Of a stretch of DNA of 11,725 nucleotides, positions 1,477 to 7,575 are shown piece after piece. The position numbers and the translations under genes are program-made. The notes under the pieces were generated by a model. That model ran no database searches and was not told the origin of the DNA. It saw nothing but the letters and a program-made list of their open reading frames with translations. Where the stretch lies: the UHGV virus genome UHGV-0243446; one strand, 5' to 3'. The stretch's first letter is position 1. The number at the start of each line of letters is the position of its first letter. The DNA is from a virus.

Positions 1477-1890
1477 TCACTTTCCTTTTCCCTGAAGCAT
1501 TGCGGCGCGGCAGGCGTTCCAGCCTCTCACCTCTGCAATAGCTGCAACAGCATCAACCGCGTACATGCTAAGAGGGTTAGGCATTGGTTTTTCTTCCGGT
1601 ACTACTGGAACGGGTGGAGTGGCGTAGACCTCAATAATTCCATTATCAATAGGCCATTCCCCATCCTTGATGTAGTCACTTGTGCCATCGACCTGCTGTT
1701 CTGCAATGTGGAAAGCACCTATTGGTTTTGCTTCCAGCGATGCCAGCGTAATTTCGGCCAGCTTGAGGTGAATAACCGCTGCATCAGAAGCGCCCGGGAC
1801 TCTTTCCACCGCAACGCGAAGAACCTCAATATTCTTCTTAGCCTGCTCAATCAACTGCTCTTTGGTGAACTCTTTGGTAATAGTGGTCAT
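1477..1890 (-). CDS. Hypothetical protein (137 aa), paralogous module to the 124-1032 product
   Basis: ATG at 1890 with TGAGG RBS. Starts MTTIT and contains YATPPVPV, like the 302-aa protein. Confidence 0.6.
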   Translation of the reverse strand: MTTITKEFTKEQLIEQAKKNIEVLRVAVERVPGASDAAVIHLKLAEITLASLEAKPIGAFHIAEQQVDGTSDYIKDGEWPIDNGIIEVYATPPVPVVPEEKPMPNPLSMYAVDAVAAIAEVRGWNACRAAMLQGKGK

Positions 1891-1900
1891 TTGTTATGCC

Positions 1901-2098
1901 TCAATACACAAAATCTGTTTTAAATTCATGGTTACATTCTGGACAGCATGTTTCGTAATCTTTTATTTCTTCACATGCCTGTTTTGCTCCAGAAAATTCC
2001 CAGAAATCAGCATCGCAAAGCAGATCGAAATTGTGGCCGCATTTGGGGCATTCGGTATCAAGTGACAGACTCCAGTAAGCAGGTGTGTTTTTGTCCAT
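1901..2098 (-). CDS. Small zinc-ribbon-like protein (65 aa)
   Basis: ATG about 2098 preceded by AAGGAGAG, immediately after the TGA of the upstream gene (the track's longer ORF to 2179 would overlap that gene). Two Cys pairs: CPKC and CCPEC. Confidence 0.5.
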   Translation of the reverse strand: MDKNTPAYWSLSLDTECPKCGHNFDLLCDADFWEFSGAKQACEEIKDYETCCPECNHEFKTDFVY

Positions 2099-2099
2099 C

Positions 2100-2747
2100 T
2101 CACTCTCCTTTGATGCGAATGCCAGCGGCGCGTGGCACATTAACTTCCACGATGCGCACAGTTGGTTTGTACATCTCAATTGCTGTCAGCCAGTCAGCTC
2201 CTGTCATGCGCTTTTCCGCATCGCCATTAGTCCACTGAACCGGTACACCAATAGCCTTCATCGCGATTTCTATTTCCCCGGCAATGGCGCTTTTTCCGCA
2301 ACCAGTAAAACCAGAAACAACGACAAGAACTTCACCTTTGGCTGGTTTTATTTCCCGTGCTTCCAGTTCTGCAATACGCTTACTCCCATCCGAGATAACA
2401 CCTTCGTAATACTCGCGTTGCTCGTTGAGTTTTGATTTTGCTTCCTCAAGCTCAACACGCAGCTTCCCTACCGTTAGCGCAATATCCTCGTTCTCCTGGT
2501 CGCGGCGTTTGATGTATTGCTGGTTTCTTTCCAGCTCATCCAGCAGCGCCCGAACTACATCAGCGGTTTTCTGGCACTGGTCAACAATGCTAACGTCACA
2601 ACCAGTATCGAAACCGTCCTCAGTTTCAAAGCGGAGCTCTACAGAGTCGCCGTCGATATCAGATGGTTCGAACCCGGCAATGTTTTCCAGAATGCCGATT
2701 ATGCTTTCTGCGCTATGACGTAATGCGCGTTTATCGATGTTGCTCAT
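2100..2747 (-). CDS. Coiled-coil accessory protein (215 aa), possibly Ea22-like, with C-terminal GxxxxGKS motif
   Basis: ATG at 2747 overlaps the upstream stop (ATGA). Central charged heptad-like region (ELEEAKSKLNEQREYYE...AELEAR). C-terminal GFTGCGKS matches the Walker A pattern. The Ea22-like assignment is from memory and weak. Confidence 0.55.
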   Translation of the reverse strand: MSNIDKRALRHSAESIIGILENIAGFEPSDIDGDSVELRFETEDGFDTGCDVSIVDQCQKTADVVRALLDELERNQQYIKRRDQENEDIALTVGKLRVELEEAKSKLNEQREYYEGVISDGSKRIAELEAREIKPAKGEVLVVVSGFTGCGKSAIAGEIEIAMKAIGVPVQWTNGDAEKRMTGADWLTAIEMYKPTVRIVEVNVPRAAGIRIKGE

Positions 2748-3433: not shown

Positions 3434-3730
3434 TCAGTCATTACTGATAGCGCCATAGCGTGAGCGGTAATTACGCAGGCGCGGGTCGATATATTCAGGG
3501 AAGTGGGTATATGTGGCTTTGCGGAATGGTCGGATTGATGTCTGGTAAATTCGCTCGCGTTCTTCTTTCTCTGCAAGCCATATACAGTGGCGAAATTCCT
3601 TTTCCTCTTTCGTTTCCTGCGGTAGCGACATTATCCGATCGTAGTTTTTTCTGAATTTATCCAGCACCTCCGATACGGAATTGCCGGAACAGCGGCGCGC
3701 GTCATCCGCACCATACAAAGGCGCTGGCAT
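3434..3730 (-). CDS. Hypothetical basic protein (98 aa)
   Basis: ATG at 3730 with AGGAG RBS 6 nt upstream; directly follows the SSB stop. Confidence 0.55.
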
Positions 3731-3743
3731 GTTTTTCTCCTGA

Positions 3744-4250
3744 TTAAATTGCGTGAATAGCGTGACGAGGGAAGGGGAGAGTTACTGGTGCAAAGGGTAT
3801 ATCGTCGTCAAAATCCATCGGAGGTTCGTTGTGTTGTGCTGGTGATGATTGCTGCTGTGGCTTCTGTGATTGCCTGCTGGCTGCTTGTTGTTTGCTGTCG
3901 CCAATGCCGCCAAGCATTTGCATCACGCCATTAATTCCGACATGAACCTCGGTTGTGTAACGGTCTTGCCCTGACTGGTCTTTCCACTTTCTGGTTCTCA
4001 GCATTCCCTCGAAATAAATCTGATCACCTTTTTTCACATACCGCCCAACGACCTCAGCCAGTTTCCCGGATACAGCAACACGATGCCATTCAGTCAATTC
4101 CTTTTGCTCGCCAGTATTTTTATCTCGCCATTGTTCTGACGTGGCTATTGTCAGGTTAGCGAACGCTGTTCCTGATGGTGAGTATCGAACTTCCGGGTCT
4201 TGTCCTACCCGACCAAGGATAATCACCTTATTTACGCCTCTGCTTGCCAT
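3744..4250 (-). CDS. ssb: Single-stranded DNA-binding protein (SSB) with C-terminal extension
   Basis: N-terminus [13 protein letters not shown]...DPEVRY...TEWHRV...[11 protein letters not shown] closely resembles E. coli SSB, followed by a Gln/Ser-rich tail and [10 protein letters not shown]. The ORF then continues 15 codons ([15 protein letters not shown]) before the stop. Confidence 0.9.
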
Positions 4251-4958
4251 TTATGCCGCCTGTTTTAGTTCGTTAACTCTGATGTTCATTACCTGAACGC
4301 ATTTAGCCTGCGCCTCCTCGTTGCCAGCCATTAATTGCCAGTCACGCTGATAACGCTCGATGAGTTTTTTCTTGTCAGTTTCTGTTGACGCATAATCGCT
4401 GAAGTCTTTCAGGATTTGTTCGCAGTCAACCGATGGAGATTTCTGGTTGGTATTTTCTGGTGATGGTTTGTTATCTGATGCTGGGATTGCCCATCCCGGC
4501 AGCGATGGAGGAAGCCAGTAAAATCCTGTTCCATCCTTCAGTTTTGCCCTGTGCCACCCCTGCTTTTTATCGAGAGATGTTTGTGCGAAACCTTCCTCAA
4601 GGTTATACAGATACCGACCGATTCCCCATTGAACGGCAGCACGCTTCATTGCACCGGAACGACCACCTTTGACGGCTTCTACCTGCGTGTTTTCAGCAGC
4701 ATCCCATTTGGTTACCCATTCGGAATCAATCCTGATTGATATGCCGCATTCAACGCCTCCGTTGTTGGGAATATCGCGGTATTCATTGCGCCATCCTGCT
4801 TTGCCGCAAACATCGTCCAGGCGTTTCATGATTGCCCGGTTCGTGACATAAGCCAGCACCATAGCCCACACTTTGCCATCGCGTGTTTTACCGCTTTGCT
4901 GTATTCGCCATTCGATATCTTCAGGGCTGAATGGCTCATCGAATTTGTTCAAATCCAT
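4251..4958 (-). CDS. Rad52/Rad22-family single-strand annealing protein (phage recombinase)
   Basis: ATG at 4958 with GAGGTGA RBS. Core region (KWDAAENTQVEAVKGGRSGAMKRAAVQWGIGRYLY) resembles the conserved Rad52 annealing fold. Sits immediately upstream of ssb (TAAATG junction). Confidence 0.65.
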   Translation of the reverse strand: MDLNKFDEPFSPEDIEWRIQQSGKTRDGKVWAMVLAYVTNRAIMKRLDDVCGKAGWRNEYRDIPNNGGVECGISIRIDSEWVTKWDAAENTQVEAVKGGRSGAMKRAAVQWGIGRYLYNLEEGFAQTSLDKKQGWHRAKLKDGTGFYWLPPSLPGWAIPASDNKPSPENTNQKSPSVDCEQILKDFSDYASTETDKKKLIERYQRDWQLMAGNEEAQAKCVQVMNIRVNELKQAA

Positions 4959-5057
4959 AATTCACCTCAGAATGGACACGGCCCAAGGAAATAACGCTGA
5001 TTTAATACTTCGACTCGGGACAAATTAAGGCATACCCGCATTCCTTCGCGGTCACCA

Positions 5058-5216
5058 TTATGGCGACACCAGAGAGCTTTCTGCGTGTACATGCGTCTCT
5101 GTAACTTGCTCTCCTTCACTGTGGTTGCAAGTGACATGAATATCTCCTTCGTTACCGATTAATTCTTTCATCTGACGAATGAATTCTTCGTCTGACCAGT
5201 TATCTGTAAAACTCAT
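5058..5216 (-). CDS. Small protein in the kil position (about 52 aa)
   Basis: ATG about 5216 overlaps the stop of the cIII-like gene. It occupies the slot that kil holds in lambda; there is no sequence-level support for Kil identity. Confidence 0.35.
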   Translation of the reverse strand: MSFTDNWSDEEFIRQMKELIGNEGDIHVTCNHSEGEQVTETHVHAESSLVSP

Positions 5217-5383
5217 GGACGGCCTTGTTGTTTCAAAATATCCCAAAGCTTTTCGAGCAAACTTTTCATTCTTGGTTGTTTAAAGTCTGCTCCGGTTAAA
5301 ATATTTTTTCGTGAATGCTGTACCGATAAAATCGGGTTGAAAGGGCGAACCGATGCCGCCCCTGCAATAGCGAACTGTTGCAT
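5213..5383 (-). CDS. cIII: cIII-like protein (56 aa; FtsH-inhibitor family)
   Basis: Absent from the ORF track (under 60 aa). ATG about 5383 with AAGGAG RBS 6 nt upstream. Product MQQFAIAG...KSLLEKLWDILKQQGRP resembles lambda cIII (MQYAIAG...SLLERI...LIDILNQPG) as I recall it. Confidence 0.6.
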   Translation of the reverse strand: MQQFAIAGAASVRPFNPILSVQHSRKNILTGADFKQPRMKSLLEKLWDILKQQGRP

Positions 5384-5449
5384 AGGATGCTCCTTCTGTT
5401 TGATTGCATAACGAAAACGCCTCGAGTGAAGCGTTATTGGTATGCGGTA

Positions 5450-5470
5450 AAGCCGCCAACAGGCGGCTAT
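5450..5470 (-). terminator. Hairpin GCCGCC-AACA-GGCGGC downstream of the 5474-5707 gene
   Basis: Perfect 6-bp GC stem with 4-nt loop. The T-rich flank is better on the plus strand than the minus strand, so terminator function for the leftward operon is uncertain. Confidence 0.3.
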
Positions 5471-5473
5471 TTG

Positions 5474-5707
5474 CTATTGATTCTTTTCAAGAACATCAAT
5501 GATGTCGTCCGGGTTGTCTCCGTTGTCTTCACAAAATGCTTCGAATTCAGCCCATTTCGCGCTGATAAAATCAATTACTCTCATTAATTCGTATTCCATA
5601 TTTTTCTCCAGACCAAAAGAATGCCGCCCATATAGAGCGGCAAGACTATCAAGGAATGATTTCCAATAATCAGAACAAGTCGGCTCCTGTTTAGTTACGA
5701 GCGACAT
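5474..5707 (-). CDS. Hypothetical protein (77 aa; possible alternative start about 5599 giving 41 aa)
   Basis: ATG at 5707 with a weak RBS; an internal ATG about 5599 has a GGAG RBS. Followed on the minus strand by a GCCGCC/GGCGGC hairpin. Confidence 0.4.
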   Translation of the reverse strand: MSLVTKQEPTCSDYWKSFLDSLAALYGRHSFGLEKNMEYELMRVIDFISAKWAEFEAFCEDNGDNPDDIIDVLEKNQ

Positions 5708-5744
5708 TGCTCACATAGCAGACTCGCAAATCTGCTATAGGTGC

Positions 5745-5906
5745 TTATTCGCATCGCATGACAACATCAAATTTTTCGAGATTACTTTGTCGCAACAATC
5801 CCTCTTCTACGCGGTCAGCTTTTCTATAATTATCAAATTCGAAATGTTTAATTACTTCTTTCGTTTCTCGCTCTATAACTTCAACGATGTATTTCTTATT
5901 CATCAT
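5745..5906 (-). CDS. Hypothetical small protein (about 53 aa)
   Basis: Absent from the ORF track. ATGATG start overlaps the stop of the 98-aa gene; GGGGAAG RBS-like sequence upstream. Product MMNKKYIVEVIERETKEVIKHFEF... Coordinates +/- 2 nt. Confidence 0.35.
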   Translation of the reverse strand: MMNKKYIVEVIERETKEVIKHFEFDNYRKADRVEEGLLRQSNLEKFDVVMRCE

Positions 5907-6238: not shown

Positions 6239-6439
6239 TCAGGCAGCCTTGTTATTCTGTTTACCAAGTTCTCTGGCAATCATTGCCGTCGTTCGTATTG
6301 CCCATTTATCGACATATTTCCCATCTTCCATTACAGGAAACATTTCTTCAGGCTTAACCATGCATTCCGATTGCAGCTTGCATCCATTGCATCGCTTGAA
6401 TTGTCCACACCATTGATTTTTATCAATAGTCGTAGTCAT
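6239..6439 (-). CDS. ral: Ral-like restriction-alleviation protein (66 aa)
   Basis: 66 aa, the same size as lambda Ral. Its start is overlapped by 17 nt by a 28-aa ORF, which matches the lambda orf28/ral arrangement as I recall it. Product MTTTIDKNQWCGQFKRCNGCKLQSEC... Confidence 0.55.
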   Translation of the reverse strand: MTTTIDKNQWCGQFKRCNGCKLQSECMVKPEEMFPVMEDGKYVDKWAIRTTAMIARELGKQNNKAA

Positions 6440-6517: not shown

Positions 6518-6817
6518 TCAAATAAGTGGTTTGCTGCCTAATTTCATTTTCTGGCGACCAACACAAGTCACACCCATTTCACTGCGTGGCTTGCTGTAGT
6601 AAATACGGTTCTGTTTACGCTCGACTTCTTCTGCCTTCTTGCAGCGAAGGCTTCCGAGTGATGCTGCTTTGTCTGCTCTGACGCAACCAGAGAGCTTTAG
6701 CGCAATTTTTCGCGCCAGTCGCTGTTCTTGCATTGCCTGTTCACGTTGAGCCTGTCTGCGTGCTCTGCGGCGATTTCTGGTGTTATCGTCAGCCAGATAT
6801 GTAATGACTACTGCCAT
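6518..6817 (-). CDS. N: N-family transcription antitermination protein
   Basis: ATG at 6817 with GGAGG RBS 5 nt upstream. N-terminal arginine-rich motif (TRNRRRARRQAQREQ). C-terminal region (RKQNRIYYSKPRSEMGVTCVGRQKMKLGSKPLI) resembles lambda N. nutL lies upstream in the leader. Confidence 0.85.
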   Translation of the reverse strand: MAVVITYLADDNTRNRRRARRQAQREQAMQEQRLARKIALKLSGCVRADKAASLGSLRCKKAEEVERKQNRIYYSKPRSEMGVTCVGRQKMKLGSKPLI

Positions 6818-7185: not shown

Positions 7186-7575
7186 TTAGTCAGCGAAGGT
7201 TAAGACGAGAATTACCTTAATGATGTCTGCTACAACAGACACGGCCATAGATAAACCAAAGACAATCCAAGCCATAGAGATGTCTTCACTACCATCGTAT
7301 AGAGTTCCGTAATCACTGGTGTAAGGCGTAAATGTCGCGCCTTGATACAACAGGTATAAGCTTGAACCATAGAGGATAAATGCAGATATCCCTTGTATTG
7401 CTATGATCACCAGAATCATGAAACGAGCTGATCTATGCGCCCAAGCCTGGCTTATTTTTTCTGATAGAGATTTCGCAATAAAAGCATGCGCTAAGCCGTA
7501 AATTGTCGAGATTTCCAACATCCCCAAAAAGCTTGCTATAGCGGTTCCAACCATAATCGCCCCTTGCGTGATCAA
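7186..7575 (-). CDS. Small polytopic membrane protein (3 predicted TM helices) in the rex/immunity-region position
   Basis: Track ORF begins with TTG overlapping the cI stop. An ATG about 7554 with AAGGGG RBS is likely the real start (about 122 aa). Three hydrophobic segments of about 22-25 residues. Downstream of cI on the same strand, as rexAB is in lambda. Confidence 0.6.
   Translation of the reverse strand: MITQGAIMVGTAIASFLGMLEISTIYGLAHAFIAKSLSEKISQAWAHRSARFMILVIIAIQGISAFILYGSSLYLLYQGATFTPYTSDYGTLYDGSEDISMAWIVFGLSMAVSVVADIIKVILVLTFAD

Follow-up and report, generated by a model that had tools for sequence, protein, structure and literature searches.

Genes of the exo-xis region of phage lambda have been reported to modulate the lysis-lysogeny decision, rather than to act in defence (PMC7093339, PMC8614690). 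One of their products, Ea8.5, is a zinc-binding, hybrid homeodomain/zinc-finger protein (PDB 2M7A) whose small product gene stands between ea22 and xis in the pL operon, directly after ea22 (PMC8614690). Lambda Orf73, which is encoded in the same genome region, is a homologue of TraR that binds RNA polymerase (PMC9239242), and proteins of the TraR/DksA type are marked by an N-terminal helix with a DxxDxA motif (PMC8614690).

Here we describe a gene for a 65-amino-acid acidic protein, predicted to be a Cys4 zinc ribbon, in an 11,725-nt stretch of viral DNA (UHGV virus genome UHGV-0243446; hereafter, the window). By position, this gene is the analogue of ea8.5: it lies downstream of an Ead/Ea22-like gene in a leftward early gene string. 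However, the two proteins are not homologous: hhalign gave a probability of 5% and aligned 12 columns, at one knuckle. Ea8.5 also belongs to a different fold class, helical and homeodomain-like with an added finger (PMC8614690).

The locus and its coding sequence

The window comes from a lambdoid/P22-like phage or prophage of enterobacteria and covers its early-left, immunity and replication genes. Its minus strand encodes a DUF551 protein, a DUF4014 protein, a phrog_5117 protein, the 65-aa ORF, an Ead/Ea22-like protein, an EaE-like protein, Abc2, SSB, an Erf/Rad52-like annealase, several small ORFs, Ral, an N-like ORF and a cI-type repressor; Cro-like and cII-like ORFs (both assigned by position), an O-like protein and a DnaB-like helicase are encoded on the plus strand. 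The N-like antiterminator ORF (6518–6817, minus strand) was recognised from its Arg-rich translation and has no family match. The nearest sequenced relatives, mEpX2, IME10, HK620 and Sf6, are ~97% identical to parts of the window, and the 65-aa ORF lies outside all of these matches. The original prediction placed the ORF in an early-left accessory cluster. This is right: the ORF lies between the Ead/Ea22-like and DUF551-type genes, in a leftward string that includes the genes for Abc2, SSB, Erf, Ral and N. The presence in this string of the anti-RecBCD gene encoding Abc2 (3434–3730, minus strand; PF11043, E = 4.1e-61) and of the antirestriction gene encoding Ral (6239–6439, minus strand; 66 aa, full-length and Cys-containing; PF11058, E = 1.6e-48) indicates that the leftward operon carries two characterised counter-defence genes. 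Elsewhere in the window, a strongly hydrophobic ORF of 129 aa (7186–7575, minus strand) with no Pfam match lies directly downstream of cI, between cI and the N-like gene; its position recalls that of exclusion genes such as rexB/sieB in other lambdoid phages.

The 65-aa ORF occupies positions 1901–2098 of the minus strand, with its ATG at 2096–2098 and its TGA stop codon at 1901–1903, and its translation is MDKNTPAYWSLSLDTECPKCGHNFDLLCDADFWEFSGAKQACEEIKDYETCCPECNHEFKTDFVY*. Besides this translation, the gene is documented by a match to phrog_4173, by dN/dS and by its homologues, all described below. A Shine-Dalgarno sequence, AAGGAG, can be read at 2105–2110 (minus strand), 6 nt 5' of the ATG and within the last codons of the upstream gene. 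These observations confirm the earlier report of a 65-aa ORF with a good ribosome-binding site, and they place it on the minus strand. The upstream gene, which encodes the Ead/Ea22-like protein (2100–2747, minus strand; PF13935, E = 2.1e-26), ends with a TGA at 2100–2102, leaving a gap of 1 nt before the ATG; this layout suggests that translation of the two genes is coupled. On the other side, 10 nt separate the stop codon from the next gene downstream, which is of the phrog_5117/660/60 type (1477–1890, minus strand; assigned using PHROGs). We saw no promoter- or terminator-like site separating the ORF from its neighbours, suggesting that it is one cistron of a leftward early operon. Some gene callers choose in-frame start codons further upstream, an ATG at 2140 or a TTG at 2179, both of which lie inside the upstream gene and have no comparable ribosome-binding site. 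We take the ATG at 2098 to be the correct start because homologues from unrelated phages begin there, and because it is preceded by a strong ribosome-binding site.

The Ead/Ea22-like protein has a feature of its own, a C-terminal extension of ~80 residues (about residues 136–215) with a Walker-A-like GFTGCGKS motif. The extension gave sub-threshold matches to P-loop kinases (APS_kinase, E = 0.036; NCBIfam adenylyl-sulfate kinase, E = 0.006), and it is too short for a complete NTPase domain.

Two Cys pairs about 30 residues apart had been noted in the 65-aa translation. Both are present: C17 and C20 in a CPKC motif (2039–2050, minus strand), and C52 and C55 in a CPEC motif (1934–1945, minus strand), with 31 residues between C20 and C52. 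The window contains 71 ORFs with a length of 50 aa or more; no other among them has two CxxC motifs 10–45 residues apart, and 200 base shuffles of the window gave a mean of 0.08 ORFs with such a pattern.

Conservation, fold and family assignment

We compared the gene with the copies in two phages. The copy in Salmonella phage SE10 is 94% identical at the nucleotide level, with nine synonymous and three non-synonymous differences and a dN/dS of 0.06. For the copy in Klebsiella phage JustaPhage, synonymous change is saturated (34.5 of 35.2 synonymous sites), with a dN of 0.11 and proteins that are 83% identical. Thus, the ORF is under strong purifying selection. A HMMER search of 1.84 billion representative proteins yielded 201 homologous clusters (at the 50% identity level; E ≤ 1e-3), nearly all of which are stand-alone proteins of 60–75 residues that were matched end to end, and a profile search of a 5.8-billion-protein collection yielded 143 clusters. 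These data confirm that the ORF is a genuine conserved gene.

Conservation of individual positions was assessed in an alignment of 88 diverse homologues, which are 30–57% identical to the query except for one at 82%. The zinc-ribbon proposal had been made subject to the cysteines being conserved in homologues, and C17, C20, C52 and C55 are invariant in all 88. The second pair was originally described as CCPEC; its second and last cysteines are the conserved ligands, whereas the first, C51, is most often Glu in homologues, and C28 and C42 also show no conservation. At least 90% conservation was observed for A7, W9, L13, P18 (87 of 88 homologues), D25, P53 (85 of 88), H57 (84 of 88) and F59 (87 of 88), the last two following the second knuckle; D31, F32, E39, V50, E54, E58, V61, D62 and Y65 are strongly conserved.

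With 14 Asp/Glu residues, five Lys and no Arg, the protein has a net charge of about -9 and a pI of 4.3. Acidity is a property of the whole family: across the 88 homologues, the net charge ranges from -6 to -15 (median -10.5) and the median pI is about 4.2, and acidic residues are conserved at positions D25, D31, E39, D47, E49, E54, E58 and D62. Family-wide acidity at conserved positions makes direct binding of DNA or RNA unlikely and points to binding of a positively charged surface on a partner. No catalytic-looking or enzyme-like features were found in the protein.

We obtained an AlphaFold2 model from the 88-sequence alignment, with a mean pLDDT of 86 and a pTM of 0.66. The modelled elements are strands at residues 14–16 and 23–25, a helix at residues 30–36, and strands at residues 45–51 and 58–63. 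The CPKC motif lies in the first hairpin (14–16/23–25) and the CPEC motif in the long second hairpin (45–51/58–63); the helix corresponds to the conserved D-F-W segment, and the loop that follows it is modelled with less confidence. The four ligands of the model are arranged as in a zinc ribbon, in two CxxC knuckles on beta-hairpin turns, and the best solved structural neighbours of the model are zinc-ribbon proteins. The earlier description of the protein as zinc-ribbon-like is borne out by the invariant cysteines, by the structure prediction and by these neighbours, and the protein is predicted with confidence to be a zinc ribbon into which a short helix is inserted. The four invariant cysteines presumably hold one metal ion, most likely zinc, although the metal could be iron.

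The match to phrog_4173 (PHROGs v4; E = 8.8e-27, covering residues 1–64) places the protein in a curated grouping, the only one that contains it. No name, function or structure is attached to that grouping, and the match is confined to columns 162–224 of its 323-column profile. The protein had no above-threshold match in Pfam or NCBIfam, where all matches were sub-threshold and covered a single knuckle (~10–17 residues): the Rad50 hook, TRASH, Zn_ribbon_x, DUF7560 and YnfU. The best Pfam match scored 19.9 bits against a cut-off of 24.3. Nearly all family members likewise stay under the gathering score; of six scanned individually, two just passed the DUF7560 cut-off, on a single knuckle only. 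In PADLOC-DB we found no match for the protein, and one homologue had a spurious match with E = 0.003. Like the generic zinc ribbons (Zn_ribbon_3/4/5, DUF7560, DUF7575 and MJ0042-type), the protein has two CPxC knuckles on beta-hairpins, and many family members match generic zinc-ribbon models below threshold. By contrast, an N-terminal A-x-W-x-h-x-L motif, the D-F-W helix and an H-E-F-K-V-D-x-x-Y tail are specific to the family. Automatic JGI labels of family members (HypA, S27E, YacG, TFIIE and DUF1610) are mutually inconsistent. Matches of the family profile to PDB sequences with E < 0.05 were to designed C2H2 arrays (Aart and a consensus zinc finger), and we rejected them as artefacts of the repeated 'CPECGKSF' sequence. 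A literature search with the family sequence motif, the RefSeq/GenBank accessions and the PHROG number found no paper, and there was no match in the supplementary text of the accessory-gene screen of Silas et al. (bioRxiv 10.1101/2023.04.06.535777). In predicted structure, the protein is an ordinary zinc ribbon, and its family is uncurated apart from a PHROG with no assigned function.

We also considered domain fusions as a clue to function and discarded them, since the longer homologues P0231, P0169, P0170, P0243, P0125, P0186, P0080 and P0086 have no recognisable extra domain. Several longer homologues are probably start-site miscalls or recombination chimeras. In P0015, P0017, P0018 and P0020, unrelated N-termini (Jedunavirus gp63-like, a 'TRASH domain' Salmonella protein, and EaE-like in Shigella sonnei) are joined to the C-terminal part of the protein. 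The joins are apparent deletion/recombination junctions within or just upstream of the gene, and that of P0015 seems to fall on a short common EWEF/FWEF motif. P0015, P0017 and P0018 are deletion chimeras that lack the first knuckle, suggesting that the gene is dispensable in some lineages.

Distribution on phages, plasmids and chromosomes

We found the family gene in 43 records of annotated phages, with Klebsiella (26), Salmonella (8), Erwinia (4), Yersinia (3), Escherichia (1) and Enterobacter (1) as hosts. In JustaPhage, the one Klebsiella phage (a jedunavirus) examined in detail, the copy follows a run of small early ORFs, and 14 nt after it ends an SF2 helicase gene probably starts. In SE10, a Lederbergvirus and the one Salmonella phage examined, the gene lies in the ea region, after those for EaE and EaA. 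Among temperate phages, it is the last gene before xis/int in two Erwinia phages, and in Yersinia phage YeP1 the integrase gene comes three genes further downstream. Nucleotide similarity of the window to the Klebsiella and Salmonella copies is lost no more than about 30 nt from either end of the gene, indicating that the gene is exchanged as a single-gene module.

The JustaPhage record (OK499978) warrants two corrections. The homologue, gp66 (4001–4198), is annotated as 'NA-directed RNA polymerase 3 subunit', a label without support. The annotated start of the helicase gene, gp67 (4083–5855), overlaps gp66 by 115 nt; a more plausible start is the ATG at 4213 (MIPTLRPYQ...), 14 nt past the gp66 stop codon.

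Among 5426 complete E. coli genomes, 85 carry the gene, and it is always annotated as 'hypothetical protein'. Plasmids account for 17 of the 93 E. coli copies, and those listed are 82–99 kb in size. The E. coli plasmids of ~93–99 kb (e.g., NZ_CP063155, 96 kb) have the same mosaic of Ead/Ea22-like, DUF551 and family genes as chromosomal lambdoid prophages. Several of the plasmid copies are annotated as fragmented or frameshifted pseudogenes, suggesting frequent recombination in the cassette.

More distant members, ~42% identical, are found on Pseudomonas megaplasmids such as pQBR103. On a 275-kb conjugative plasmid of P. aeruginosa (NZ_CP095924; region at about 8–140 kb), the member lies in a co-directional array of >120 kb that consists mostly of small hypothetical genes. 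The array also encodes ArdR, about 7 kb upstream of the homologue, together with two orphan cytosine methyltransferases, a ParB-N protein, an SOS-response-associated peptidase, TraR/DksA and RdgC. We looked for signs of a conjugative leading region on this plasmid and found no relaxase gene or oriT in the 141 kb examined. A chromosomal member in Lysobacter adjoins diversity-generating-retroelement genes (bAvd and reverse transcriptase), and further members occur in Pseudomonas and Rhodocyclaceae genomes.

We surveyed the gene neighbours of the family at 68 loci, mostly on IMG/VR contigs. The commonest upstream neighbours were Ead/Ea22-type PHROGs, at about one third of 63 loci, and the commonest downstream neighbour was a phrog_60/660/5117 protein, at about 40% of loci; the PHROGs assigned to the downstream gene in the window were found directly downstream at 21–25 of 61 loci. 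An integrase gene often follows two to four genes after the family gene, and on several contigs the cassette is placed after O-like and DnaB-like replication genes. At a few loci the family gene directly adjoins a Lar-like, anti-restriction or Ren-like gene. No obligatory partner gene was found among the 68 loci, and no neighbour with a known mechanism. Since the neighbours are variable and mostly without known function, gene context is a weak guide to the function of the family.

Possible roles and comparison with known systems

We propose that the protein is a small, rigid, acidic binder that would act stoichiometrically to block a protein of the host or of a rival element, in counter-defence or host takeover; we give this reading a probability of roughly 40%. 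It draws on the acidic conserved surface, the conserved aromatic residues, the early position of the gene, its mobility as a single gene across elements, purifying selection and the lack of enzyme features. In this mechanism, a metal-stabilised acidic zinc ribbon would be made soon after phage DNA entry or induction. The protein would then dock on a basic, probably nucleic-acid-binding, surface of a host or rival mobile-element protein, and the bound partner would be blocked or redirected. We infer every step: that the protein binds zinc, that it binds another protein, in which direction and for what purpose it does so, and that it inhibits its partner. A binder that acts specifically against defence is rather doubtful. 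The original prediction was that zinc ribbons of this kind often act as host-factor binders or anti-defence proteins. Its structural part and the placement of the gene hold; its functional part is only consistent with the acidity, the mobility and the counter-defence neighbours. We found no sequence or fold similarity between the protein and any characterised binder, inhibitor, DNA mimic or anti-defence protein. This weighs against the binder reading, as do the uninformative neighbours, the role reported for the lambda exo-xis genes and the deletion chimeras. A broader proposal concerns the family as a whole, which is widespread and uncurated and of which this protein would be the first member to be recognised: its acidic Cys4 zinc ribbons would serve as portable single-gene inhibitors, perhaps nucleic-acid mimics, of a conserved proteobacterial DNA-processing or immunity protein; in this full form, we consider the proposal unlikely.

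The protein might instead modulate lysis-lysogeny or host physiology, tuning the choice of development or the cell cycle by binding a phage or host regulator, as suggested by the lambda exo-xis proteins (Ea8.5, Orf60a/61/63 and Ea22), with no part in counter-defence. Consistent with this idea, its gene occupies the slot that follows an Ead/Ea22-like gene and precedes xis/int, the lambda slot holds the zinc-binding Ea8.5, and exo-xis genes have been reported to shift lysogenisation and induction (PMC3824215, PMC7093339, PMC8614690). By contrast, no homology links the protein to Ea8.5 or Orf55 (hhalign probabilities of 5% and 1%), and the family extends to settings of a different kind: an 83%-identical copy lies in the early/replication module of a jedunavirus, and ~42%-identical homologues lie on Pseudomonas megaplasmids. 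In neither setting did the stretches examined show an int/xis module, nor would one expect a decision on lysogeny there. A modulator of this type is an improbable explanation.

Binding to the transcription machinery is less probable again, whether by a protein like an RNA polymerase subunit or by a zinc protein like TraR/Orf73 that reprogrammes host RNA polymerase. GenBank calls the JustaPhage homologue an RNA polymerase subunit, and RPB12/RpoP zinc ribbons are among the weak PDB sequence matches (E = 0.18–1.6); however, these matches are not significant and cover one knuckle only, and we rejected the JustaPhage label as an over-annotation from a knuckle-level match. Nor does the protein resemble TraR/DksA (lambda Orf73-like) proteins: it gave no match to zf-dskA_traR at E ≤ 0.1, and it has no long N-terminal helix with DxxDxA, the helix of the model being seven residues long (30–36).

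Rubredoxins are small and acidic, with two CxxCG-type knuckles at a spacing comparable to that of the CPxCG...CPxCG pattern seen here. The protein could accordingly be viewed as a rubredoxin-like small electron carrier or redox sensor with Fe-binding knuckles, given the likeness in knuckle pattern and acidity and the automatic JGI label 'rubredoxin' on one homologue. Against this, rubredoxins are absent both from the Pfam matches of the protein (E ≤ 0.1) and from the 25 families that the 88 members matched most frequently, the only structural match to a rubredoxin ranks 46th with a TM of 0.33, and no redox partner genes lie nearby, making an iron protein of this type very unlikely. That the ORF is selfish or decaying filler with no function of its own is scarcely credible: although only 85 of 5426 E. 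coli genomes carry the gene and truncated and chimeric versions are known, it is under strong purifying selection, its four cysteines are invariant across proteobacterial phages and plasmids at 35–55% identity, it has a strong ribosome-binding site, and its spacing to flanking genes is tight at most loci.

Should our proposal hold, with a conserved host or immunity protein as the target that is bound and neutralised, the protein would add a new zinc-stabilised scaffold to the known counter-defence and host-takeover factors, and would give a name and a function to a family of at least 200 clusters now annotated as 'hypothetical'. As it stands, the gene is a further uncharacterised accessory gene in a region rich in them. 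The small size of the protein, the confident prediction of its fold and the well-studied phages that carry it make the proposal cheap to test.

With respect to described families, we tested the protein for membership of Ea8.5, TraR/DksA, Ral/Lar, rubredoxin, LysW and the Pfam zinc-ribbon models (Rad50_zn_hook, TRASH, Zn_ribbon_3/4/5 and DUF7560), and found that it belongs to none of them. The amino-group carrier protein LysW is defined by a C-terminal acidic tail for substrate attachment and is linked to lysine and arginine biosynthesis genes. It has a globular zinc-ribbon domain (PDB 3wwl, 5eio). We found no significant sequence relation between the two, with a sub-threshold match to Zn_ribbon_LysW in 14 family members. 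By contrast with LysW, the protein has no acidic tail, ending instead in KTDFVY with a conserved aromatic last residue, and its gene has phage accessory genes nearby rather than genes for lysine or arginine biosynthesis. ZitP is part of a larger Caulobacter membrane protein and is neither a stand-alone nor a mobile-element protein; the ZitP zinc finger (PDB 2nb9) is 14% identical to the protein. Neither PF11058 (Ral) nor PF14354 (Lar_restr_allev) is among the matches of the protein at E ≤ 0.1, and the Ral of the window is a separate gene, at 6239–6439. We found no sequence similarity of the protein to Ral/Lar, Ocr, Arn or T7 gp5.9. Strong acidity, as observed throughout the family, is typical of DNA-mimic inhibitors, whereas the known DNA mimics are, to our knowledge, not zinc ribbons. 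Ral/Lar, Ocr, Arn and T7 gp5.9 are likewise small early accessory proteins, with Ral encoded in the same operon as the protein and Lar-like genes lying beside some of its homologues. The protein probably works most like other small early accessory binders.
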